From: an uncultured Pelagibacteraceae bacterium
GTDB taxonomy: Bacteria > Pseudomonadota > Alphaproteobacteria > Pelagibacterales > Pelagibacteraceae
Length of the DNA stretch: 64,000 nt
Direction: 5' to 3'
Assembly: GCA_902535255.1 (NCBI GenBank)
Contig: CACASQ010000003.1
Span: 5,102 to 69,101 of the forward strand
Part shown: piece after piece, positions 3,974-16,665 of the stretch
Numbering within the stretch: the first letter of the stretch is position 1
How the letters are laid out: every line of letters starts with the position of its first letter
Made by a program: the position numbers and the translations under genes
The notes under the pieces: model-generated
Told to the model about the DNA's origin: nothing
Database searches by the model: none
Seen by the model: the letters and a program-made list of their open reading frames with translations, nothing else

Positions 3974-4765
3974 TTAATATCCTTTTGAATCAGATTCTTT
4001 TTTTGTACCTTTTATCTTTTCAATTGCTACTTTTGAACCAGAGCTCATAAACCGTTGGTCAGATCCAACAGTAACTAGATTAAAACCTATAGAAACCATT
4101 TTTTTTGCATATTCCACACTACCATTATGAATTCCTGCCATCAGCTTTCTTTTTTTTGTAGCTTCTAAAATTCTTAATATTTCTTTATATGCAATTGTTT
4201 TTTCAGATTTGTCGAAACCAGGTTCCTCCCCTACAGCTAAACTTAAATCTGCAGGACCGATATAAATACCATCCAAATTCGGAGTATCAAGAATTTCGTC
4301 AAGTTTCTCCAATGCTTCTTTAGTCTCTATCATAGCGAGTTTTAAAATCTCTTTATCAGCTTGTTTTGCATAATCACTTCCGCCATATAATAATCCTCTG
4401 ATAGGCCCAAAACTTCTATAACCTTTGGGTGGGTACAAGCAAGCTTTAACAAAATTTTCTGCCTCTTTCCTATTACTTACCATCGGACAAATTATACCAT
4501 AACACCCAGCATCTAAAATTTTCATAATTTGCCCAGGCTCATTCCAATTTACTCTTGCTAGAGGAACAGTTTCTGTTGACGAGATGGCTTGCAACATGTT
4601 TAAAGCATTAGGATAATCAATTACACCATGTTGCATGTCAATCGTGCACGAATCCCATCCCTGATGCGCCATAACTTCTGCAGAAAAGGCACTAGGTATT
4701 TGAAGCCAACCATTTATAATTGGTTCACCATTTTTAAACATTTGTTTTAATTTATTTATTCTCAT
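3974..4765 (-). CDS. HpcH/HpaI class II pyruvate aldolase
   Basis: IDMQHG, ILDAG, PPKGYRSFG, MIET and IGPADLS motifs. Confidence 0.9.
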   Translation of the reverse strand: MRINKLKQMFKNGEPIINGWLQIPSAFSAEVMAHQGWDSCTIDMQHGVIDYPNALNMLQAISSTETVPLARVNWNEPGQIMKILDAGCYGIICPMVSNRKEAENFVKACLYPPKGYRSFGPIRGLLYGGSDYAKQADKEILKLAMIETKEALEKLDEILDTPNLDGIYIGPADLSLAVGEEPGFDKSEKTIAYKEILRILEATKKRKLMAGIHNGSVEYAKKMVSIGFNLVTVGSDQRFMSSGSKVAIEKIKGTKKESDSKGY

Positions 4766-6207
4766 TCGTAAGAGGAGCCAAAATGAGTATATTTTATATT
4801 TAGGTAGTCCTTTATCGCCATTGAACCACCTTCTCTACCATAGCCAGTTTGTTTTATACCACCAAATGGTGCCTCTGCTACCGCTACAACTGGAGTATTA
4901 ACAGCTACGCACCCTGTTTCAAGCTTTTCTGAGGCTTGATTTGCTCGTTTAAGGTCTGTTGTATAAACGTAACTGCAAAGTCCTAGATCATTATTATTTG
5001 CTCTCTCCATTACCTCATCAAAATTTTTAAAAGTTAAAATTGGAACTATTGGGCCAAATGGTTCTTCTTTCATAATTGTAAAATTATCTTTAACATTATC
5101 AAAAATTGTTGGTTCATAATAATAACCTTTATTAAAATTAGCTGCTCTTTTTCCACCTAACAAAATTTTTCCACCTTCTTTTTTTGTAGTCTCAACTAGC
5201 TTTTCAACTCCTTCTAATCTTTGCTTTGTACATAAGGGTCCTAGTAAAGTGTCTTTATCCATTCCATTTCCCATTTTTAATTTTTTGGTTTTTTTTACCA
5301 TTAAATCCGCAAATTCATCCTTTTTCTTTTCATGTATATAAAATCTATTTGGTGAGATACAAACTTGTCCATTATTTCTAAATTTTGCAGTAATAGCCAT
5401 ATCTGTAACTTTATTTAAATCAACATCATCAAATACAATAAAAGGTGAATGGCCACTTAATTCCATAGTAACTCTCTGAACTTTTTCTGCAGCTTGTTTT
5501 AAAATAAGTTTACCTACTCTAGTAGATCCTGTTATGGAAATTTTTTTTACTATATCTGATGAAATAAGTTCTGAAGATATTTCTGCTGGATCTCCTGATA
5601 ATAAATTTACTACACCAGGAGGAACACCTGCCTCACGACAAATATCTACTATTTCCATTACACTTCCTGGCGTTATTACGTCTGGTTTGACTATTACAGA
5701 ACAACCTGCGGCTAATGCAGTAGAAATCTTTCTTGAAGCTAAGATTATTGGGAAGTTCCATGGAACTAATGCTGCTACTACTCCAACTGGTTGGTAAATA
5801 ACATGAATTTTAGTATTAGGAAAACGACTTTGATTTATTTCTCCAAATATTCTTTTTGTTTCTTCTGAATTCCATTCAAAAATATCAGCGGCCCCTCCTA
5901 TTTCACCTGGCCCCTCTGTAATTGGTTTTCCTACTTCTAAAGTTAACCATTTAGATAAAACATCAACTCTTTTTCGTATTAGTTCTGAGATTTTTCTAAT
6001 TACTTTAGACCTTTCCCAAGGGGATGTGTTTCTCCAAATTGCTAAACCTTTTTCTGCTGAATGCAAAGCTCTTTGAACATCTTTACTATTTGCCTTAGAA
6101 GCTTTTCCAATAATTTCTTCTGTTGCAGGATTTATTACTTTGTATGTTTCTGCACTCGAGGATTGTTGCCATTTACCATCGATAAATTGACCAAATTTTT
6201 CGTACAT
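4762..6207 (-). CDS. NAD(P)-dependent aldehyde dehydrogenase, succinate/alpha-ketoglutaric semialdehyde dehydrogenase family
   Basis: PWNFP, ITGST, MELSG, NNGQVC (catalytic Cys), EEPFGP, APFGGIKQTGYGREG. Confidence 0.85.
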   Translation of the reverse strand: MYEKFGQFIDGKWQQSSSAETYKVINPATEEIIGKASKANSKDVQRALHSAEKGLAIWRNTSPWERSKVIRKISELIRKRVDVLSKWLTLEVGKPITEGPGEIGGAADIFEWNSEETKRIFGEINQSRFPNTKIHVIYQPVGVVAALVPWNFPIILASRKISTALAAGCSVIVKPDVITPGSVMEIVDICREAGVPPGVVNLLSGDPAEISSELISSDIVKKISITGSTRVGKLILKQAAEKVQRVTMELSGHSPFIVFDDVDLNKVTDMAITAKFRNNGQVCISPNRFYIHEKKKDEFADLMVKKTKKLKMGNGMDKDTLLGPLCTKQRLEGVEKLVETTKKEGGKILLGGKRAANFNKGYYYEPTIFDNVKDNFTIMKEEPFGPIVPILTFKNFDEVMERANNNDLGLCSYVYTTDLKRANQASEKLETGCVAVNTPVVAVAEAPFGGIKQTGYGREGGSMAIKDYLNIKYTHFGSSYE

Positions 6208-6263
6208 AAATTATATATAGTTATTGAATATAATAAGTTAATTAATTATCTTATAAAGAATTT

Positions 6264-8108
6264 ATGAAAAACATTCAACTTACTTGTGCTCAAGCACTAG
6301 TTAAATTCCTTATTAAACAAAAAATTTTAATTGAAGGAAAAAAAGAACCATTATTTCCAGGAGCATTTGGAATTTTTGGCCATGGCAATGTAGCATGCTT
6401 AGGTCAAGCTCTTCAGGAAAACCAAAAAGACCTTCCGACATGGAGAGGACATCACGAGCAAAATATGGCTCTAACAGGTATTGCATACTCTAGAGCGAAA
6501 AGACGGAAACAAATTTTTATTGCAACATCTTCGGTAGGCCCTGGATCTACGAATATGATTACCGCAGCAGCTGTTGCCATGAGCAATAGATTACCAATAC
6601 TTTTTTTACCGGGTGATACTTTTGCAAATCGAATGCCTGACCCAGTATTACAACAAGTTGAGCATTTTAATAATCCTGGCATTACACAGAACGATGGATT
6701 TAAGTCTGTTGTTAGATATTTCGATAGAATAACAAGACCTGAACAAATCATTTCAAGCTTACAACAAGCAATTCAAGTTATGTTAGATCCAGCTGATTGT
6801 GGACCAGCATGTATTTCTTTAAGTCAGGATGTTCAAGGTGAAGTCTATGATTATCCAGAAGAATTTTTTAAAGAGAGAATTCATATAATAAGAAGACCTA
6901 GGCCAGATGATTTTCAAATTAAAGAAGCGGCTGAGCTTATAAAAAAATCTAGTAAACCAATTATTATTGCTGGCGGAGGTATTTTTTATTCAGATGCTAC
7001 TGAAGAGTTAAGCACTTTCGCAAAAAAACATAATATTCCTGTGACTCAAACAGTTATGGGTTATTCATCTATTAAAAAAGATCATACTCATTATCTTGGC
7101 ACTATTGGAGGTTTAGGAGGAAAAGCAGCGAACAATTTAAGTAAAGAGACTGATACTGCAATAGCAATAGGAACTAAACTTGCTGATTTTACAACAGGAT
7201 CATGGGCTAATTTTGAAAATCCAAATTTTAAACTAGTTTCTATTAACGCTGCAAGATTTGATGCTAACAAACATATGGCTCAAGCAATAGTTGGAGATGC
7301 AAAAGTTTCATTAATTGAATTATCCCAAGCATTAGGGAATTGGAAAGCGGATGATAGTTGGCATAAAAAATCAAGAGTGGAATTAAAAAATTGGGAAACT
7401 TACGTTGAAAAAGAAAGTGGACCAACTAATCAAAAATTACCAAGCTATGCTCAAGTTATTGGAGCATGCTATAGAAATTCAGATCCCTCTGATATAGCCG
7501 TTACAGCGGCAGGAGGATTAGTTGGTGAGGTGATACAAGTTTGGAAGCCAAGAGAATTAAATACTCACGAAACAGAATGGGGTTTTAGTTGTATGAGTTA
7601 TGAGATTTCTGGAGCATTAGGTATCAAAATGGCTAATCCAGATAAAGAAGTTGTTTCGTTTGTTGGAGATGGATCTTATCTACTTTATAATTCTGATATA
7701 TATAGTTCAGTAATTACCAATAATAAATTAATACTCGTAGTTTGTGATAATGGTGGCCACGCTGTAATAAATAGACTGCAATTATACAAAGGTGGCAAAG
7801 AATTCAACTGTCTACTTAAAAGCTCAAAGACTCCTAATTTAGTACCTGTTGATTTTGCAGGGCATGCTAAGAGTATGGGAGCAGATGGTGAGCATGTTAA
7901 TTCAATAGCTGAATTAGAAGAGGCTTTCAAAAGAGCAAAAAAATCAAAAAAAACTTATGTAATTTCAATTCGTACAGATGGATATCAATGGCTAGAGGGC
8001 TCAGCTTATTGGGAAAGTCCAACTCTAGGGATAGCATCATCTGAAGAAAATAAAAAAGCCCTAAAAGAACACCTAGAAGGAAAGAAAAAGCAAAGAAAAG
8101 GTGTATAA
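6264..8108 (+). CDS. iolD: 3D-(3,5/4)-trihydroxycyclohexane-1,2-dione acylhydrolase (ThDP-dependent)
   Basis: LTCAQALVKFL, GIFGHGNV, PDPVLQQVE, EWGFSCMSYEI, GDGSY...DN ThDP motif. Confidence 0.93.
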   Translation: MKNIQLTCAQALVKFLIKQKILIEGKKEPLFPGAFGIFGHGNVACLGQALQENQKDLPTWRGHHEQNMALTGIAYSRAKRRKQIFIATSSVGPGSTNMITAAAVAMSNRLPILFLPGDTFANRMPDPVLQQVEHFNNPGITQNDGFKSVVRYFDRITRPEQIISSLQQAIQVMLDPADCGPACISLSQDVQGEVYDYPEEFFKERIHIIRRPRPDDFQIKEAAELIKKSSKPIIIAGGGIFYSDATEELSTFAKKHNIPVTQTVMGYSSIKKDHTHYLGTIGGLGGKAANNLSKETDTAIAIGTKLADFTTGSWANFENPNFKLVSINAARFDANKHMAQAIVGDAKVSLIELSQALGNWKADDSWHKKSRVELKNWETYVEKESGPTNQKLPSYAQVIGACYRNSDPSDIAVTAAGGLVGEVIQVWKPRELNTHETEWGFSCMSYEISGALGIKMANPDKEVVSFVGDGSYLLYNSDIYSSVITNNKLILVVCDNGGHAVINRLQLYKGGKEFNCLLKSSKTPNLVPVDFAGHAKSMGADGEHVNSIAELEEAFKRAKKSKKTYVISIRTDGYQWLEGSAYWESPTLGIASSEENKKALKEHLEGKKKQRKGV

Positions 8109-8116
8109 ACTTTAAA

Positions 8117-9274
8117 ATGCAAAAAATTGCTAATGTTGGATTGATTGGTTGCGGTCATATAGCCGAAACATATTTTAGAGCTCACAAATATTTTAATAAT
8201 TTTAAAATAATTAAGTGTGCAGATATAAATAAAAAAGCAGCTGAAAAATGCGCTAAGGCTTATAAGATTGAGTCTGCCTCTGTAAATGAGATATTGAAAG
8301 ATAAAAAGATTAAGATAATTCTAAATCTTACAATTCCTACATCACACTACTCAGTAACAAAAAAATCGTTACTCAATGGTAAGCATGTGTACTCTGAAAA
8401 ACCTTTGGCGGTAGATTTTAAAGAAGGTTTAAAACTTATAAAAATTGCAAAAAGAAAAAAACTTTTTATTGGAAATGCTCCAGATACATTTTTAGGAGGA
8501 GGCAATCAAAAAGCAAGAAAGCTTTTAGATAGAAAAATTATAGGTAAAATAAAGTTTGGGACTGCAATTTTTGCATTTCCAGGAATTCAATCATACCATC
8601 CTAATCCAGAGCCATGGTTTAAAAAAAAGGGAGGAGGTCCAGTTATTGATATGGGTCCTTATTATTTAACAGCACTTGTTAACTTGTTAGGCCCTGCTAA
8701 ATCTGTGACGAGTATTTGTAATTATAACACAAAAAAAAGAATTATAGGGATTGGACCAAAAAAAGGTAAAAAAATTAAAGTAGAATGTCCTACTACTTAC
8801 TTTTCGACTATAAAATTTAAAAATGGAACAACGATCAGATTGACTTTATCGTTTGATGTAATCTCCCACTTGAGAAATCATATTGAATTATATGGAGAAA
8901 AAGGATCTATGATAGTCCCAGACCCAAATATGTTTGGAGGATCTGTTTTGTTGAGCACGAAGTTAGGAAGTAAATGGAAAAATTATAAAACTAATAAAAT
9001 GATTTTAGGAAAAATTAATATTCGAACTCAAAGTTCTAGAGCGAATGAGTCTTCTACTAATGCTAATTATAGGGGCGTAGGACTTGCAGAAATGATACAC
9101 TCAATTCAAAATAATAAAAAACATAGATGTAGTGATAGTTTATCATTACATGTTCTTAATATTATAGATGGAATTCACAAATCAGCTAAAAGTGGAAAAA
9201 AATTTGATATCAAAACTACATGTGAAAAACCTAAATTTTTTACAAATAAAGATATAAATTCAATTATTAAATAG
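8117..9274 (+). CDS. Gfo/Idh/MocA family oxidoreductase
   Basis: GLIGCGHI Rossmann motif, HVYSEKPLA, APDTFLG, GGGPVIDMGPYY. Confidence 0.88.
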   Translation: MQKIANVGLIGCGHIAETYFRAHKYFNNFKIIKCADINKKAAEKCAKAYKIESASVNEILKDKKIKIILNLTIPTSHYSVTKKSLLNGKHVYSEKPLAVDFKEGLKLIKIAKRKKLFIGNAPDTFLGGGNQKARKLLDRKIIGKIKFGTAIFAFPGIQSYHPNPEPWFKKKGGGPVIDMGPYYLTALVNLLGPAKSVTSICNYNTKKRIIGIGPKKGKKIKVECPTTYFSTIKFKNGTTIRLTLSFDVISHLRNHIELYGEKGSMIVPDPNMFGGSVLLSTKLGSKWKNYKTNKMILGKINIRTQSSRANESSTNANYRGVGLAEMIHSIQNNKKHRCSDSLSLHVLNIIDGIHKSAKSGKKFDIKTTCEKPKFFTNKDINSIIK

Positions 9275-10166
9275 AATTTTGCCTACTCAAAATAGCAGCT
9301 CCACGCACGCCACTCGCATCTCCATATTTAGGTTTTAGAAAAACGGTTTTTAAGTTCGGCTCATTTATAAACTCTGATGTTTTATTTTTTATATCATCAA
9401 TAAAATCTATTTCATTTGAAATCCCCCCACCGAATACTATTGCGTCTGGATCAATTGTTGTAATGATTAAGACTAAACTTCTAGAAAGATTTTCTTTATA
9501 TTCATTAATAAATAATTGCGAATTTTTGTCTTTTTTTCTATAAAGCTCAAATATTTCTTTAGCAGAAATTTCTCTTTTATAAATTTCATAAAATCTTTTT
9601 TCGATAGATTTCCCTGATAAATAACCTTCAATTCTGTTTGAAAAATCCAAAACTTTATCTGATTTTAAATTTCCTACATTTTCAATTGGCATTTGATTTA
9701 AACTCCATTCACCACCTAAACCGTTTGCTCCAGATATTATTCTTTTATTTATTACTAATCCACCTCCACAGCCTGAACCTAGAATTATTCCAAATACAGT
9801 TTCGTAATGACTCGCAGAACCATCAAAGGCCTCAGATAAACAAAAACAATTTGCATCATTTTCTGTTAAGATATTGTTACTAATTTTTTTCTTTAAATCT
9901 TTAATTAGGTTTTTTTTATTTAACCACTTTGAATTATGAGCATTTTTTATTAAACCAGTTGTTTTGTCAATTGCTCCTGGGTGACAAATTCCAACATTAA
10001 ATTTTTCATTATCCTGATCAAATTTTTTTACGATATTTGCTAATTCTAAAATTGTATTTTCGTAATTAGGAGGTGTTCGGATTCTATCTCTACTTATTTC
10101 TTTATTGTTATTATCTAGAAGAACATACTCAATCTTAGTTGCGCCTAAATCAATTCCTATTTGCAT
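9267..10166 (-). CDS. ROK family sugar kinase (Mak/fructokinase-like) lacking the Zn-binding Cys/His motif
   Basis: IGIDLGATK, ENDANC, GIILGSGCGGG, DPDAIVFGGG, YGDASGVRGAA. Confidence 0.85.
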   Translation of the reverse strand: MQIGIDLGATKIEYVLLDNNNKEISRDRIRTPPNYENTILELANIVKKFDQDNEKFNVGICHPGAIDKTTGLIKNAHNSKWLNKKNLIKDLKKKISNNILTENDANCFCLSEAFDGSASHYETVFGIILGSGCGGGLVINKRIISGANGLGGEWSLNQMPIENVGNLKSDKVLDFSNRIEGYLSGKSIEKRFYEIYKREISAKEIFELYRKKDKNSQLFINEYKENLSRSLVLIITTIDPDAIVFGGGISNEIDFIDDIKNKTSEFINEPNLKTVFLKPKYGDASGVRGAAILSRQNSI

Positions 10167-10960
10167 TAATTAGCCGAAGACCTATTCATTTCTTGAAGCT
10201 CAACTTCTAATTTATTAAGTTCTTCACCGCCAGCCATCATACTTAGTAATTTTTCTCTTGTTATATCTTTCTTCGCATAAGTGCCTAAACTTTTTCCTCT
10301 GTTTAAAACAGTAAAACTATTACCAACAGGATAAGCATGATGAACGTTATGTGTTATTAAAATTACTGCTAATCCCTGAGAAGCAGCTTTAACTATATAT
10401 TTCAAAACAACTGACGCTTGGTGAACCCCAAGTGCTGACGTTGGTTCATCTAAAACAAGTACTTTAGCTCCAAAATATATTGCCCTGCTGATTGCTAAAC
10501 ACTGCCTTTCTCCACCTGACATAGTTCCAACCGCTTGGGATGGATCTCTTACATCAATTCCTATCTGCCCCATTCTTTCTGCAGCAATCTTATTTGCTTT
10601 CTTAATATCAAATGTCTTAAAAAAGGGAGGTCCCTTCATAGGCTCTCTGCCCATAAAAAAGTTTCTAGTCACGCTCATTAAAGACACCAAAGCTAAATCT
10701 TGATAAACAGTTGCTATGCCCATATCTAACGCATCTTTAGGACTATCAAATATAGTTTTTTTTCCTTCAACTATTATTTCTCCCTCATCAGGCTTGTGAA
10801 CGCCAGCTAATGTTTTTATTAGAGTTGATTTGCCAGCTCCATTATCGCCTAGAAGGCACATGATTTCACCTTTTCTTAATTTCATGGTCACGTCTTTTAA
10901 AGCAATTACTTTGCCAAAAAATTTACTAATATTATTAAATTGAACTAAGTAATCTGACAT
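10166..10960 (-). CDS. Sugar (inositol) ABC transporter ATP-binding protein
   Basis: Walker A GDNGAGKS, signature MSGGERQ, Walker [12 protein letters not shown]. Confidence 0.92.
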
Positions 10961-12087
10961 TATTTGCTCTCTGTTACCTTTCTTCTAATGTAATTATTAA
11001 ATATTACAGCAATTAACATCATTGCTCCTAAAAAAACTTTAAACCAATCAGTATCAACATCTGTATAAAAAATTCCCATTGATACAGTACCAAATATTAA
11101 AGCTCCAAATGCTGCTCCAATAGCTGACCCATATCCACCAGTTAACAAACACCCACCTACAACAGCTGCAGCTATAGCTTCTAGCTCTTTCAACGTTCCT
11201 CTCATTGTGTCTGCTGATCCAGCATCTAAAACTTGAATAGTAGCAAAAATTGTTGCCGCAACCGCCGTTCCAATAAATAAACTTATTTTCACTCTGCCAA
11301 CTGGTACACCTACGTTATTAGCACCATTCTTGTCTCCACCTGACGCAAAAATCCAATTACCATATCTGGTTTTCATTAATATCCAGGTAGTTAAAATTGC
11401 TAATGCTATAAACCAAATAACTGAAGGAGGAATGCCCGTAGCTAAGGGGCTGCCATCTGTTCTTAAAGCAATTAAATTCATTGAACCTAGCCATGTAAAA
11501 ACCCATTTAAATGTGTCCGTTGCAAATATCCAAGCTATAGGATCGTTTTCAATTAAAACTCTTAAACCTGGTACTTGTGTACGTCCTGTGATTAATCTTG
11601 TTAAAGCTAAAGTTGCTCCTCTTAAGATAAATAACATTGCCAGCGTTACTATAAAAGATGGTAAGCCAGTTCTGACTACGAGTATTCCATTAAAATAACC
11701 AACTAATACTGCCATTGAAAAAGCAAATATAATACTCATCCATAAAGGCCACCCCCAATAAATAGCTGGAATAGCTATACAGATTCCTGCAAAACCAATC
11801 ATTGAACCGATTGATAAGTCAAATTCTCCACCAATCATTAACATTGCTGCTGCGATAGCAATAATTCCAAGATTAGCTGATACATCTAAAAAATTTAAAA
11901 TTCCGTAAGCGCTAAACATACCGGTATCACCAGCAATAATACCAAAAAAAATAAATACTAAAATTGCTCCACCTAAAGCACCAAGTTCTGGTCTATTTAA
12001 TAATAATCTTAATTTTGAAACTTTTTTAAGTCTTTCATCCTGATTAAAATCAGTTTTATTTTCTATACTTTTAGACTTTGTTGACAT
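10960..12087 (-). CDS. Sugar (inositol) ABC transporter permease (RbsC-like)
   Basis: [31 protein letters not shown]; multiple hydrophobic helices. Confidence 0.92.
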
Positions 12088-12097
12088 ATTTAAAACT

Positions 12098-12132
12098 AAA
12101 AAAAAAGGCCTAGCGAAATATCACTAGGCCTT
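12098..12132 (-). terminator. Intrinsic terminator-like hairpin between the binding-protein and permease genes
   Basis: Minus strand AAGGCCTAGTGA-TATT-TCGCTAGGCCTT followed by a T run. Confidence 0.8.
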
Positions 12133-12145
12133 CTTTATATATTTT

Positions 12146-13069
12146 TTATCTATAACCTTGAGCAGCCCATTTAATTACACTCTTAGCGTTTTTAGGTGTA
12201 ACAAAACCAGGTCCTGTCATAACTACACCAGCTGGCATAGTTCCGTATCTCATATATTGAGAAAAGATAGCTATAGGTAAGTAACCTTGTAAGTACTGTT
12301 GTTGGTCAATTAAGAACTCAACTTTTCCTGCAGCGGCAGCTTTCAGCATTCCTGGTGACATATCGAATGTACCAAGTTTAACACTTCCAACTTTTCCAGC
12401 TGACTCTAAAGCTTTTAGAGCAGCTTCACCCGCAAGACCAGCTCCTAAAGTAAGAATGGTGTCATATCCACCACCTAATTTAGCAGCTACAGCTTTTTGA
12501 ATTTCAGTCGGGTCGTTTGATGTACCTAATATATCTACAGATCCACCAAAACCTTTTTTGAAACCAGCACATCTTCTATCTAAGGCAACGTTTCCTACTT
12601 CGTGGTTCACACATAGTGCTTTTTTACCACCAGCAGCCTTCATTTTTTGTCCGCCACCTACTCCTGCTTCAAACTCTGTTTGACCAACGTGAGCGCTTAT
12701 TCCAAGCTTCATGTAGTCATCAGAACCTGAGTTCATAGAGATCACTGGAATACCTGCAGATATTGCAGCTTTAACAGACTTACCTAGAGCGGCAGCATCT
12801 GGTAAAGTTATTACAATACCTTTTGGTTTTTGAGAAACAGCATTATCAATTAATTTTGCCATCTCTACCATGTCAAATGTTGCTGGAGCAGTGTATTTGC
12901 AAGATACTTTCATATCTTTACAAGCTTTATCAACTCCGTTTTTTGCAACAGACCAGAAAGGGTCATTTGCTTGCCCGTGAGAAACAACAATAATATCTAC
13001 AGCTAAAGCTGCTACTGACATCATTGCCCAACTCATAAGAGCAGCAATTGTTAAGTATACTTTTTTCAT
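12146..13069 (-). CDS. Sugar ABC transporter periplasmic binding protein, probably inositol-binding
   Basis: Signal peptide MKKVYL...ALA, SHGQANDPFW, IDQQQYLQGY. Start moved to ATG 13069, which follows a GAGGG SD. Confidence 0.88.
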   Translation of the reverse strand: MKKVYLTIAALMSWAMMSVAALAVDIIVVSHGQANDPFWSVAKNGVDKACKDMKVSCKYTAPATFDMVEMAKLIDNAVSQKPKGIVITLPDAAALGKSVKAAISAGIPVISMNSGSDDYMKLGISAHVGQTEFEAGVGGGQKMKAAGGKKALCVNHEVGNVALDRRCAGFKKGFGGSVDILGTSNDPTEIQKAVAAKLGGGYDTILTLGAGLAGEAALKALESAGKVGSVKLGTFDMSPGMLKAAAAGKVEFLIDQQQYLQGYLPIAIFSQYMRYGTMPAGVVMTGPGFVTPKNAKSVIKWAAQGYR

Positions 13070-13170
13070 GATTATTTCCCTCATTTGTTTGTTAATTTTG
13101 CATAATTAAAACAAAAAAATTTAATAAATTCAAAAGGAAAAAAAATCTATACAACTGCAGGTAGTTGAAA

Positions 13171-14166
13171 TTACTTCAATTTTACTACTCTTTTTTGGAT
13201 TAAAGATTTATATGCAGCATTAGCAATTTTTAATGCTAAATAACCATCTTCAAAAGTTGATCTTGGTTTTATTCTTTTTTTATGAAGGGAGATAAGTTCT
13301 TTTAATTGAAGATTATAAGCGTCTTTATATCTTTCAATAAAAAAATTTAAAAAAGGCTTTTGTGAATGAGATTGATTTGAATTAAAGATTTCTGTGGCAT
13401 TATTTTTATGATTTCCTGATAAAAGCATTCCTTTTTTTCCAAATAACTCAACTCTTTGATCATAACCAAAAGAACAATGTCTAGAATTTGTTATTACACA
13501 AATGACACCTTTTTTTGATTTCATTATTACTGTGGCTAATTCGTGATCTTTTATTTTTCTATAAAATGGCTCAAATGAGGTTGCTGACGAACTTATTTCT
13601 GAAATTTCATCATTTTTTAAATAATATCTACATAAATCAAAATCATGAATCATCATATCTCTAAAAATCCCACCGGATGATTTTAAATAAGATTTAGATG
13701 GAGGAGCAGGATCTCTACTAGTAATTATTATTTTTTCTAATCTTCCAATTTTGTTTTTATCTAAATCCATTTTTATGGAATGGTGGCCAGGATCGTATCT
13801 TCGATTAAATCCAAGCTGTAATTTTGATTTATTTTGTTTTACTTTTTTAAAAGTTTTGATAATTTTTCCTATATTTAAATCTAAAGGTTTTTCACAAAAT
13901 ATAGTTTTTTTATACTTAATACCCTCTTCTATAAATTTTATATGAGTGTTTGTGGGGCTCGAAATAAAAATTATATCTACTTTTTTATCTGAAAAAATCT
14001 TTTTATAGTTTTTTTCAAAGATGCAATTGTAAATTTTTTTAGCTTTTTTTCCTAATCTATCAACTTTTTCATAAACATATAATAGTTTGAGGTTTTTATC
14101 TTTATCTATATTTTGAGCATGCATTTGCCCTATTCTACCAAAACCCAAAAGTGCTACATTAATCAT
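13171..14166 (-). CDS. iolG: myo-inositol 2-dehydrogenase
   Basis: GFGRIG, CEKP, GFNRRYDP, ITSRDP, GGIFRDMMIHDFD, GYDQRVE, FFIERYKDAY. Confidence 0.88.
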   Translation of the reverse strand: MINVALLGFGRIGQMHAQNIDKDKNLKLLYVYEKVDRLGKKAKKIYNCIFEKNYKKIFSDKKVDIIFISSPTNTHIKFIEEGIKYKKTIFCEKPLDLNIGKIIKTFKKVKQNKSKLQLGFNRRYDPGHHSIKMDLDKNKIGRLEKIIITSRDPAPPSKSYLKSSGGIFRDMMIHDFDLCRYYLKNDEISEISSSATSFEPFYRKIKDHELATVIMKSKKGVICVITNSRHCSFGYDQRVELFGKKGMLLSGNHKNNATEIFNSNQSHSQKPFLNFFIERYKDAYNLQLKELISLHKKRIKPRSTFEDGYLALKIANAAYKSLIQKRVVKLK

Positions 14167-14225
14167 ATATTCTTTTGTAACTTTATTTTATTTATAATAT
14201 AAAATGATATTACTTTCTTAAAACT

Positions 14226-15125
14226 ATGTCGATAAGATTAGGAATAGCACCTATTGCATGGAGTAACGATGATATGCCAGAATTAGGAGGCAAAACTCCA
14301 TTAGAACAATGTTTAAAAGAAGCTAGTTTGGCCGGCTTTACTGGAGTTGAATATGGTGGAAAATTTGCAATGGATTCAAAAAAACTTATACCAAAACTCA
14401 ATAAAGAAAACCTGAAGCTATGTTCTGGTTGGTACGGGGCGCAACTATTAAAAAGATCTCCTAAAGAAGAATTTAAACTTATGCAGAAACAACTTAAATT
14501 ATTTAAGGATTGTAATTCTCCTTGTATGGTATTTGCCGAGATCACTGACTCTGTGCAAGGAGATCCTATAACTCCGTTATCTAAAAGACCAAAATTATCA
14601 AATGATGATTGGAAAAAATTAATCAATTCTATAAATGAAATAAGTAAAATGATGATGGATGAAAACATGCCGCTTGCATACCATCATCATATGGGAACCG
14701 TCATAGAGACAGAAGAAGACACGAGAAGGCTTATTGAGAATACAAAAGATACAGTTGGTTTATTAGTTGATACTGGTCATATGCTATTCGCTCAAGGTAA
14801 TTCAGTTAAACTAGTTGAGAGTTTTTATGAGCGAATAATCCATGTACATTGTAAAGACATTAGAAAAGATATTTTAGAAAAGTCTTTAAAAAATGATGTT
14901 ACATTCAGACGAGCATTTTTAGATGGAGCTTTCACTGTTCCAGGAGATGGATGCATTGATTATGTTCCTTTTTTAAATTCTTTAAGAAAAAAAAATTATT
15001 CAGGATGGCTTGTTGTTGAAGCAGAGCAAGATCCTGCGAAAGCAAATCCTTTCGAATATGCTAAAATTGGATTTAACTATTTGAACAAAACTGCAAAAGA
15101 ATGTGGTTTTGAAATTATAAATTAA
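14226..15125 (+). CDS. iolE: myo-inosose-2 dehydratase
   Basis: GIAPIAWSNDD, YHHHMGT, DTGH, HVHCKD, FTVPGDG, VVEAEQDP. Confidence 0.95.
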   Translation: MSIRLGIAPIAWSNDDMPELGGKTPLEQCLKEASLAGFTGVEYGGKFAMDSKKLIPKLNKENLKLCSGWYGAQLLKRSPKEEFKLMQKQLKLFKDCNSPCMVFAEITDSVQGDPITPLSKRPKLSNDDWKKLINSINEISKMMMDENMPLAYHHHMGTVIETEEDTRRLIENTKDTVGLLVDTGHMLFAQGNSVKLVESFYERIIHVHCKDIRKDILEKSLKNDVTFRRAFLDGAFTVPGDGCIDYVPFLNSLRKKNYSGWLVVEAEQDPAKANPFEYAKIGFNYLNKTAKECGFEIIN

Positions 15126-15631
15126 CGATAAAGAGATACTAATTCATTATTTCCTGCAGCTACGCAAGGTGATTTTATACAAGTGCCCACAACCCATTCG
15201 GATCCTGCTTCGGACTCAAAATCATTAGAGGATACAAAAATTATACCTTTGTCTGTAGATTGACCTGCCTTACCTTCAGCTTGTATTCTAGGATCTTGAG
15301 ATGATTGTATTAAAGGTTTATTGGTTGAGTAAGGGTTTTTTAATTCTATATTAGATAAAACATAATTTACAATTTTTTCAGATGTCCAAACAGAATTACA
15401 TTTCTCACCCCAAGAAGTAGATCCTTCAATATTTGAACTACAAATATTGACTTCTTTATTAATAAAATCAACAACTAATTTATGATTTGATTTTATATCA
15501 TTAGCCTTTTGTAAAACTTCTGACCTTGTAGAGGCGGTCCATAATAACATTAAAATAACGTATGTGATTGAACTTATAACTAAAGCTTCTAATGGCCCAA
15601 AATTTTTTAACTTTCTTTTAATATCAATCAT
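15122..15631 (-). CDS. Hypothetical membrane-anchored protein with a degenerate type IV pilin-like N-terminus
   Basis: Basic leader KRKLKN, then F-G-P-L-E (F+1/E+5), a hydrophobic helix and four Cys. Confidence 0.5.
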   Translation of the reverse strand: MIDIKRKLKNFGPLEALVISSITYVILMLLWTASTRSEVLQKANDIKSNHKLVVDFINKEVNICSSNIEGSTSWGEKCNSVWTSEKIVNYVLSNIELKNPYSTNKPLIQSSQDPRIQAEGKAGQSTDKGIIFVSSNDFESEAGSEWVVGTCIKSPCVAAGNNELVSLYR

Positions 15632-16584
15632 AATTTCACGATCATAGATTTATCAATCTTATTATCAAAAAAATCAATAATATTTTTTGTGGTCTCTAAA
15701 GACATTCTAGATTTACATTCATTAGTGAATGTTGCTGAATGAGGACTTAATAGTATTTTTTTGTTGCTTAGTAGCGGGTTATTTTTATCAATTGGTTCTT
15801 TTTCAAAAACATCTAATCCAGCTCCAAAAATTATATTCTCATTTAGCGCTTTATTTAAATCATCTTCATTAATTATTCCACCTCTTGCTGTATTTATAAC
15901 AATTGCCTCCCTCTTCATATTTTTAAGTTTAGAATAATCGATTAAATTTTTAGTATCCTTAGTTAATGGCACATGCAAAGATAGATAGTCACAATTTTTA
16001 AGTCCTTCTTCTAGATTTTCAATTTTTTGGCCTCCAAATTCTTCTATGATTTTTTTATTAATAAAAGGATCATAAATTTTTACTTTCATTTCAAAACCTT
16101 TACATCTTTTAATTAAACTTTGACCTATTCTTCCAAATCCAACAATTAAAATTTCCTTATTAAATAGCTCTAAAGTCTCTATAGAGGATACATTTTTTTT
16201 AAAATTTCCAATTCTTACCTCTTGATCAAATTGATTGTTGCTTTTGGAAATAGATAGCATCATATAAATTACATGTTCTGCTACAGCCACAGCATTTGCT
16301 GTAGCCGTAATTAACAATGTTATGTTATTTTTCTTAATGTAATTTAAATCAACATTATCATAACCAACACCATGTCTAGATATTACTTTTAAATTTTTAC
16401 AATTAGACATAATTTTTTCATTTAATTTGGACACTCTAAGTGTGCATGCATCAAATTTAGGTAGGACTTTTATTAAGTTTTCTTCAGATGTATCTTCGAT
16501 TATTTCAAACTCAAAGTCTGGATTCTCTTTTAATAAATCTATTCCGTCTTGATGAATATTTTCTATAATTGCTACTTTATGCAT
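15628..16584 (-). CDS. D-isomer-specific 2-hydroxyacid dehydrogenase (SerA-like, no ACT domain)
   Basis: RHGVGYDNVD, GFGRIG, LHVPLT, INTARGG, GLDVF, SPHSA. Start corrected to ATG 16584 because the longer track start lies inside the tRNA. Confidence 0.85.
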   Translation of the reverse strand: MHKVAIIENIHQDGIDLLKENPDFEFEIIEDTSEENLIKVLPKFDACTLRVSKLNEKIMSNCKNLKVISRHGVGYDNVDLNYIKKNNITLLITATANAVAVAEHVIYMMLSISKSNNQFDQEVRIGNFKKNVSSIETLELFNKEILIVGFGRIGQSLIKRCKGFEMKVKIYDPFINKKIIEEFGGQKIENLEEGLKNCDYLSLHVPLTKDTKNLIDYSKLKNMKREAIVINTARGGIINEDDLNKALNENIIFGAGLDVFEKEPIDKNNPLLSNKKILLSPHSATFTNECKSRMSLETTKNIIDFFDNKIDKSMIVKL

Positions 16585-16590
16585 TTTTTT

Positions 16591-16665
16591 TGGCGGTCCC
16601 AAGGGGAATCGAACCCCTCTTTGTTGGATGAAAACCAACTGTCCTAACCGATAGACGATGGGACC
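16591..16665 (-). tRNA. tRNA-Glu(TTC)
   Basis: Acceptor GGTCCCA/TGGGACC plus GCCA; anticodon arm GTTGG-TTTTCAT-CCAAC; T arm AGGGG-TTCGATT-CCCCT. Confidence 0.96.

Follow-up and report, generated by a model that had tools for sequence, protein, structure and literature searches.

A proposed oxidative lower pathway for inositol catabolism in SAR11 bacteria that lack IolB and IolC

We analyzed an inositol catabolic cluster in a 64,000-nucleotide stretch of DNA (the window; contig CACASQ010000003.1, positions 5,102 to 69,101) from an uncultured SAR11 bacterium of the Pelagibacteraceae, whose genome assembly (GCA_902535255.1; G000 below) comprises 945 kb and is 84.6% complete. The upper half of the cluster is the known pathway; its lower half belongs neither to the canonical iol pathway nor to the Gud/Gar pathway, though it would function in the manner of the latter's aldarate type. 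Judged from sequence and gene context, the cluster is a real, widespread and undescribed variant for which a specific mechanism can be proposed. An aldehyde dehydrogenase (ALDH), a D-2-hydroxyacid dehydrogenase and an HpcH aldolase very probably make up its lower pathway, and we put the probability at roughly 0.55 that the three act in an oxidise–oxidise–cleave scheme with myo-inositol among its substrates. The broader claim, that myo-inositol degradation in roughly half the species of the main SAR11 family proceeds by an ATP-free, hitherto undescribed route with 5-deoxyglucarate and 3,4-dihydroxy-2-oxoadipate as intermediates, stands at about even odds.

The upper half is encoded by iolG, iolE and iolD. 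IolD, a thiamine diphosphate-dependent trihydroxycyclohexanedione hydrolase (6264 to 8108, plus strand; TIGR04377, 795.9 bits against a cut-off of 715), and IolE, a myo-inosose-2 dehydratase (14226 to 15125, plus strand; TIGR04379, 394.8 against 290), both scored over the curated cut-offs of canonical iol pathway models, and the inositol 2-dehydrogenase IolG (13171 to 14166, minus strand) reached 337.9 bits against a cut-off of 355 with TIGR04380, its best model by far. IolG, IolE and IolD together convert myo-inositol to 5-deoxy-D-glucuronate by established chemistry. Between iolD and iolG lie the minus-strand genes for a CUT2 ABC importer, namely an ATPase (10166-10960), a permease (10960-12087) and an inositol-type binding protein (12146-13066). 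The nearest PDB entry to the binding protein was 4RU1 (E 5.8e-42), described as a verified myo-inositol transporter (PMC10747050); with the rhizopine substrate-binding protein model it scored 321 bits against a cut-off of 420. The binding protein was 94-100% identical across most congeners, against 60-90% for the flanking enzymes, and its gene had the highest GC content of the cluster (0.40), reflecting either strong constraint or recent spread.

The enzymes that canonically act on 5-deoxyglucuronate were missing. IolB (PF04962) was absent from the source genome (0/1), its relatives (0/151), the genomes derived from related loci (0/5, three of them titled complete) and the family genomes (0/201, each at least 85% complete), while positive controls matched and closed isolate genomes were among those lacking it. 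IolC (TIGR04382) gave no match over the cut-off in the 151 relatives or the five locus-derived genomes, the best reaching about 116 bits against 300. In the source genome, DUF2090 was not found, a Ruegeria iol-cluster aldolase used as a tblastn query revealed no IolJ-type class II aldolase, and the PfkB proteins resembled ribokinase, the adenosine-kinase type and ThiD; tblastn with IolB, IolC, RpiR and class II aldolase sequences from real iol clusters likewise found no ortholog. An earlier note on this DNA had listed IolB, IolC, IolJ and IolR as absent from the window, and profile and tblastn searches extend this to the whole source genome at its 84.6% completeness, with neither iolB nor iolC over cut-off elsewhere. 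The same note had counted IolA as missing from the window, which is right for the window alone, since MmsA (IolA) is encoded on a different contig, where sdhB and mdh flank its gene (G000:C5:27805-29232; TIGR01722, 700 against 448.5). The gap therefore consists of IolB, IolC and IolJ, and IolA is not part of it.

Three other genes form the core of the putative lower route. The first, hpcH (3974 to 4765, minus strand), encodes an HpcH/HpaI class II pyruvate-type aldolase of the hydroxyketoacid-aldolase subfamily; the second, aldH (4762 to 6207, minus strand), encodes a non-acylating ALDH of the SSADH/KGSADH type, with a reading frame that overlaps hpcH by 4 nt and a start that lies 56 bp from the divergently oriented iolD. 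The third encodes a PGDH/glyoxylate-reductase-like D-2-hydroxyacid dehydrogenase (15628 to 16584, minus strand). The coordinates of the ten genes described earlier between 3974 and 15125 were all correct, and the cluster boundary had been drawn too short, so that this last module member was overlooked.

The active sites of all three enzymes were intact. HpcH matched PF03328 with its catalytic His/Arg/Asp and its Glu/Asp metal ligands all present, and these residues (H46, R71, D85, E147 and D173) were invariant in 80 SAR11 copies. Its best PDB match was the aldolase SwHKA of Sphingomonas wittichii (PDB 6R62; E 1.5e-54, against 3.5e-38 for HpaI), and it fell below the GarL (TIGR03239, 125 against 406.75) and HpaI (TIGR02311, 160 against 368.8) models. 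ALDH retained the catalytic E249 and C283 as well as R277 and scored below the GabD/SSADH cut-off (TIGR01780, 485 against 646); HpcH and ALDH, like the two companion enzymes described below, had broad-family matches only. The hydroxyacid dehydrogenase carried the Arg234, Glu263 and His282 triad and a Rossmann fold with an NAD-type Asp (D172), and was below every named equivalog cut-off. The closest plasmid relatives of HpcH (53%) sit in garD/gudD (galactarate/glucarate) operons, and near relatives of the hydroxyacid dehydrogenase adjoin a tricarboxylate-type transporter and a Bll6730-type enzyme, which we take to be a D-tartrate dehydratase; these contexts appear to point to hydroxylated diacids as substrates. 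In two SAR11 genomes (G194:C1:352000-371999 and G225), a Bll6730-like gene accompanies genes for a tripartite tricarboxylate-type transporter and for a paralog (52%) of the hydroxyacid dehydrogenase, and tartrate use is possible in some SAR11 bacteria.

The three genes were closely linked to iolD throughout the family. IolD was found in 103/201 family genomes, spread over five of eleven genera; among the 161 near-complete genomes, 85 carried IolD and the cluster and none carried IolB. The HpcH ortholog occurred in 104 of the 201 genomes, 100 of which also had IolD, and 94 genomes had neither; the three IolD-only genomes were all contig-end cases, and two of the four HpcH-only genomes were contig ends beside aldH. 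The hydroxyacid dehydrogenase accompanied IolD in 101/103 genomes, and IolD, HpcH and this dehydrogenase were all present in 99/201 and all absent in 88. The order hpcH-aldH-iolD was kept in 89/89 SAR11 loci containing iolD, most of which had been chosen through hpcH, and the hydroxyacid dehydrogenase gene directly followed hpcH in 22 SAR11 loci. The module occupied differing chromosomal positions in different genera, and was confined to five genera of one family, a distribution over two SAR11 families being ruled out by its presence in 0/60 sampled genomes of the other. Cultured strains carrying the cluster include nBUS_30, nBUS_36, Uisw_136 and HTCC8051.

Some loci depart from this arrangement. 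In G200:C5, G158:C4 and G020:C16, hpcH lies outside the iol locus, with a tartronate-semialdehyde-reductase-like gene and a ROK kinase gene of divergent sequence (38-40%) in its vicinity, and in G200 and G158 aldH, iolD and gfo (see below) remain in place. In many loci of genus g10, hpcH and the dehydrogenase gene are separated by an inserted block of PanB-like, DUF1907, ketopantoate-reductase-like, 2-oxoglutarate–Fe(II) and PhyH dioxygenase genes; some of these loci also encode another hydroxyacid dehydrogenase, together with a CUT2 importer and RbsD-like and ribokinase-like proteins.

The cassette was also found outside SAR11. In 14 plasmid records of alpha- and gammaproteobacteria (Klebsiella, Pantoea, Acidiphilium, Paracoccus, Qingshengfaniella, Jiella, Rhizobium and Shinella), aldH, hpcH and the dehydrogenase gene formed one operon within an iolD cluster, most of these clusters also containing iolE, iolG and a gene for an RpiR regulator. 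The hydroxyacid dehydrogenase gene directly followed hpcH in all plasmid cassettes with aldH, and the records with the closest IolDs and those with the closest hydroxyacid dehydrogenases were largely the same. Conversely, none of six iolC-type clusters contained the trio. The cassette IolDs formed clades apart from the sampled iolC-linked IolDs; a single origin of all cassette IolDs was not resolved (16% of bootstrap trees, few canonical rows in the tree). Beside the cassette on the R. leguminosarum Vaf-108 plasmid stand two desaturase-family genes, presumably MocD-like, for which O-methyl cyclitol demethylation is a possible role.

Two rhizobial loci, in Rhizobium NXC24 and Shinella zoogloeoides, provided the best clue to the step after IolD. 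Their gene order is iolD, an extended short-chain dehydrogenase/reductase (SDR) gene, the hydroxyacid dehydrogenase gene and hpcH, and neither contains an ortholog of the SAR11 ALDH. The best named PDB matches of the extended-SDR gene were distantly similar uronate dehydrogenases (E 3.6e-14), an SMP-30 lactonase gene lies in the same operon, and the SAR11 IolD was sister to the IolDs of both loci (99/99). Since ALDH is here swapped for a uronate-dehydrogenase-like gene with a lactonase, this substitution points to an oxidation of a uronate to an aldarate as the probable step after IolD.

A different division of labour has to be set against this assignment, in which the Gfo/Idh/MocA oxidoreductase encoded next to iolD (gfo; 8117 to 9274, plus strand) would catalyze the oxidation after IolD, ALDH would do no more than convert malonate semialdehyde to malonate, and reduction of the aldolase product would be the sole task of the hydroxyacid dehydrogenase. 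The gfo gene follows iolD in 85/89 SAR11 loci, SSADH-type enzymes use short acid aldehydes, and the variant cluster of Rhizobium NXC24 has genes resembling those for malonate decarboxylase and a malonate transporter at a distance of about 6 kb. Yet gfo is a SAR11-specific companion with no close relative in the non-SAR11 cassettes, the replacement of ALDH resembles a uronate dehydrogenase rather than a semialdehyde enzyme, and MmsA is already present in the genome, so that we regard this division of labour as decidedly unlikely. The gfo product, whose best PDB match was DgpA (E 1e-15) and whose relatives sit with glycosidases and TIM-barrel epimerases, is a candidate second cyclitol dehydrogenase or glycoside oxidase; an assignment as an IolY ortholog was rejected, its identity to S. 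meliloti IolY being only 24%.

The second companion, a Mak-fructokinase-like ROK kinase scoring below its cut-off (9267 to 10166, minus strand), is linked to the cluster in SAR11 and lies outside the wider cassette. The earlier note had proposed, as a check, to look in related genomes for co-occurrence of the aldolase, dehydrogenase and ROK genes with iolDEG; ROK was found in 97 IolD-positive and 14 IolD-negative genomes of 196 and inside the fetched locus in 56/89 SAR11 loci. The same note had offered, as one of two possibilities, a route with the canonical intermediates, in which ROK would serve as the kinase, HpcH as IolJ and ALDH as IolA. The distribution of ROK, which was found in none of the IolD-negative genomes of genus g1, and its position near the relocated hpcH in G158, G200 and G020 are in line with that proposal. 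Nevertheless, an isomerase was not found, 5-deoxyglucuronate lacks a primary hydroxyl that could be phosphorylated, and HpcH-family enzymes require a metal-bound 2-oxo acid (PMC10099721) and cleave 2-oxo acids rather than ketose phosphates of the dihydroxyacetone phosphate type. Furthermore, the plasmid cassettes examined had no ROK, and the ROK alleles are 38 to 86% identical and often stand beside other sugar transporters. PFK and class I aldolase motifs are present in the source genome, the PFK motif fitting subclade II, so the function of ROK may be no more than to supply glycolysis with hexoses. A route through the canonical phosphorylated intermediates is thus extremely unlikely, and gfo and ROK may belong to a hexose or glycoside side branch.

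Beside the observed gene content, co-occurrence, absence of IolB and IolC, intact active sites and gene substitution, we infer all substrates and the order of the steps as follows. An inositol-type cyclitol would be imported and its ring opened by IolG, IolE and IolD to a deoxy-hexuronate, which for myo-inositol is 5-deoxy-D-glucuronate. ALDH would then oxidise C1 of 5-deoxy-D-glucuronate to yield 5-deoxy-D-glucarate, and the D-2-hydroxyacid dehydrogenase would oxidise the C2 hydroxyl to yield (3S,4R)-3,4-dihydroxy-2-oxoadipate; the second step is assigned to this enzyme because the C2 hydroxyl of 5-deoxy-D-glucarate has the D configuration used by the family and the catalytic triad is intact. 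Finally, HpcH would cleave the C3–C4 bond, giving hydroxypyruvate and malonate semialdehyde. The trio would thus replace IolB, IolC and IolJ with no phosphorylation or ATP use before cleavage and no dehydratase. SwHKA, the nearest solved aldolase, has the same metal ligands and catalytic residues as HpcH and uses hydroxypyruvate (PMC10099721), and members of the aldolase family yield 3,4-dihydroxy-2-oxo acids with 3S combined with 4S or 4R (PMC7610986).

The earlier note had also considered a non-phosphorylative route to pyruvate, in which ALDH would form 5-deoxyglucarate, a dehydratase encoded elsewhere would convert it to 4-hydroxy-2-oxoadipate, and HpcH would release pyruvate and malonate semialdehyde. 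Such a route matches the GarL-like chemistry of the nearest HpcH relatives and the pyruvate carboxylase genes adjacent to some loci, and a promiscuous biosynthetic IlvD might conceivably supply the dehydratase. Against it, IolE was the sole dehydratase in the cassettes examined, no sugar-acid dehydratase family was common to the IolD-positive genomes checked, and the aldarate dehydratases GudD and GarD had no match in the source genome. This genome and five IolD-positive congeners each have a single IlvD/EDD; strong enolase-superfamily matches occurred in 2/5 congeners and not in the source genome, and the UxaA-family gene of relatives is SuyB-like by context, lying beside aprBA and xsc. A dehydratase route would moreover leave the conserved hydroxyacid dehydrogenase with no role, whereas the presence of this enzyme in the module makes a dehydratase unnecessary. 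We therefore consider the dehydratase route very unlikely. The general proposal of a lower pathway built on ALDH and HpcH and independent of IolB, IolC and IolJ is well supported by the genomic data; neither of the two routes first offered for it fits best.

In the oxidise–oxidise–cleave scheme, MmsA, encoded elsewhere, would convert malonate semialdehyde to acetyl-CoA. Hydroxypyruvate would probably be reduced to D-glycerate, possibly by the same D-2-hydroxyacid dehydrogenase, and D-glycerate would reach lower glycolysis after phosphorylation by a core glycerate kinase of the GLYK type. A homolog of the plant/fungal-type D-glycerate 3-kinase (GLYK) was found in the source genome (G000:C13:11535-12452) and in 185/201 family genomes, and a DUF4147-type glycerate kinase was not found in five genomes. 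Enolase and PPDK motifs were also found in the source genome. A serine exit for hydroxypyruvate was rejected, as five genomes contained no strong class V aminotransferase beyond the SufS type. The pyruvate supply predicted by the earlier note would be only indirect for myo-inositol, via hydroxypyruvate and glycerate, and direct for a deoxy-inositol substrate.

Several observations weigh against the proposed scheme. No family model names the substrates of the route, the enzyme roles being read from sequence and gene context, and the family genomes are kin, so that the counts show linkage rather than many independent events. SwHKA itself gives 3S,4S adducts, not the 3S,4R configuration of the gluco series (PMC7610986). 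SAR11 HpcH has a His (residue 213) in place of Phe210 of SwHKA, and this residue was rejected as a marker of hydroxypyruvate use since galactarate-operon copies also carry it. The glycerate kinase was likewise rejected as a discriminator between hydroxypyruvate and pyruvate, a core gene in 185/201 genomes being uninformative, and a crude motif scan found no phosphoglycerate mutase in the source genome. Both gfo and ROK track iolD in SAR11, and the proposed route does not explain their presence. The trio can also be incomplete: hpcH occurs with no iolD in G271 and G189, the two real HpcH-only cases, and aldH with a divergent dehydrogenase gene occurs with neither iolD nor hpcH in G043, at the same locus, and in G157. 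At the G043 site (G043:C2:170000-185058), only aldH (81%) and the divergent hydroxyacid dehydrogenase (58%) remain, iolD, hpcH, the importer, iolG and iolE being gone; the similar pair in G157 adjoins methylamine-utilisation-like genes. Outside SAR11, iolC and iolB are kept beside the trio in both Paracoccus clusters, suggesting that the trio may serve another substrate there, and a pyruvate carboxylase or phosphoenolpyruvate synthase (ppsA) gene adjoins four loci, a glycerate kinase gene only one, which hints at pyruvate as a product.

The last two observations would be explained by the main rival, in which the same three reactions act on a deoxy-inositol of the quercitol type, or on another stereoisomer, rather than on myo-inositol. 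With a deoxy-inositol, 2,4-dihydroxyadipate semialdehyde would be converted to 4-hydroxy-2-oxoadipate and cleaved to pyruvate and malonate semialdehyde, a textbook HpcH reaction; with another stereoisomer, the product would be a uronate that IolB, IolC and IolJ cannot process. Haptophyte algae store deoxy-cyclitols as osmolytes, the separation of the cassette IolD clades from the iolC-linked ones agrees with a different substrate, and many clusters contain additional genes of the Gfo, TIM-barrel, PhyH and desaturase-like kinds, which suggest varied cyclitols. On the other hand, the binding protein is nearest to a myo-inositol binder, IolE and IolD pass myo-inositol models, and the single origin of the cassette IolDs lacks bootstrap support. 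We consider a substrate other than myo-inositol unlikely on balance, and it would not exclude the scheme with myo-inositol, as one enzyme set could handle both.

The remaining features of the locus lie at its edges. A 169-aa protein (15122 to 15631, minus strand) encoded between iolE and the hydroxyacid dehydrogenase gene had no Pfam or NCBIfam match and is not part of the core; it is conserved, has a hydrophobic N terminus, is often encoded behind the hydroxyacid dehydrogenase and is missing in several loci. All of its Atlas clusters were hypothetical, and one weak Atlas neighbour had a pilin N-methyl motif. A tRNA-Glu gene (16591 to 16665, minus strand; ARAGORN) marks the edge of the cluster, and on the opposite side a truncated XerD-like recombinase gene (90-758) and variable glycosyltransferase genes flank it; gene content in the interval between xerD and hpcH varies among congeners, resembling a small hypervariable region. 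A promoter/terminator scan showed no excess over shuffled sequences (58 against 60.7), and 20 marine metatranscriptome runs covered small shares of the stretch (0.07-0.15).

The cluster shares with the B. subtilis IolG-E-D-B-C-J-A and proteobacterial iolCDEB systems an importer, an IolG just short of its model's cut-off, IolE, IolD, malonate semialdehyde as a predicted C3 product and MmsA in the genome. It differs from them in having ALDH, the D-2-hydroxyacid dehydrogenase and HpcH where IolB, IolC/DUF2090 and the class II aldolase stand, in the absence of IolR and in the proposed lack of an ATP-consuming step before cleavage. With the hexuronate/aldarate pathway (Udh, lactonase, GudD or GarD, GarL, GarR and GarK), it would share the oxidation of a uronate to an aldarate, cleavage of a 2-oxo-hexarate by a PF03328 enzyme and a glycerate exit, and two variant loci contain a Udh-like gene and a lactonase gene; unlike in that pathway, the 2-oxo group would arise from a dehydrogenase and not a dehydratase, the substrate would be a 5-deoxy compound and C1 would be oxidised by ALDH in most loci. 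The Thermotoga maritima route (IolG, IolM, IolN and IolO, via 5-keto-L-gluconate) also dispenses with IolB, IolC and IolJ, yet it lacks IolE and IolD and its enzymes are unrelated.

Our literature search turned up no account of the route, of its gene set or of its intermediates, and no paper listing inositol catabolism among SAR11 carbon sources. A survey of inositol clusters counted only those with three of iolB, iolC, iolD and iolE (PMC9430895), and clusters of the SAR11 type were excluded from it because of this definition. Three points are new: IolB was found nowhere in a family in which half of the species carry IolD, a uronate-dehydrogenase-like gene takes the place of aldH in some loci, and the evidence speaks against a dehydratase step; in SAR11, the trio was the only lower route found.

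SAR11 bacteria are the most abundant in the ocean, and their carbon sources are few and well catalogued. One SAR11 isolation medium was supplemented with 6 uM myo-inositol (PMC12789548), which may be an unnoticed substrate. If the proposed route is correct, it would provide a natural pathway for the hydroxyketoacid-aldolase subfamily and a further bacterial inositol pathway, present also in rhizobia, Paracoccus and on enteric plasmids, and cells that depend on a C3 acid such as glycerate or pyruvate could obtain it from an algal cyclitol.

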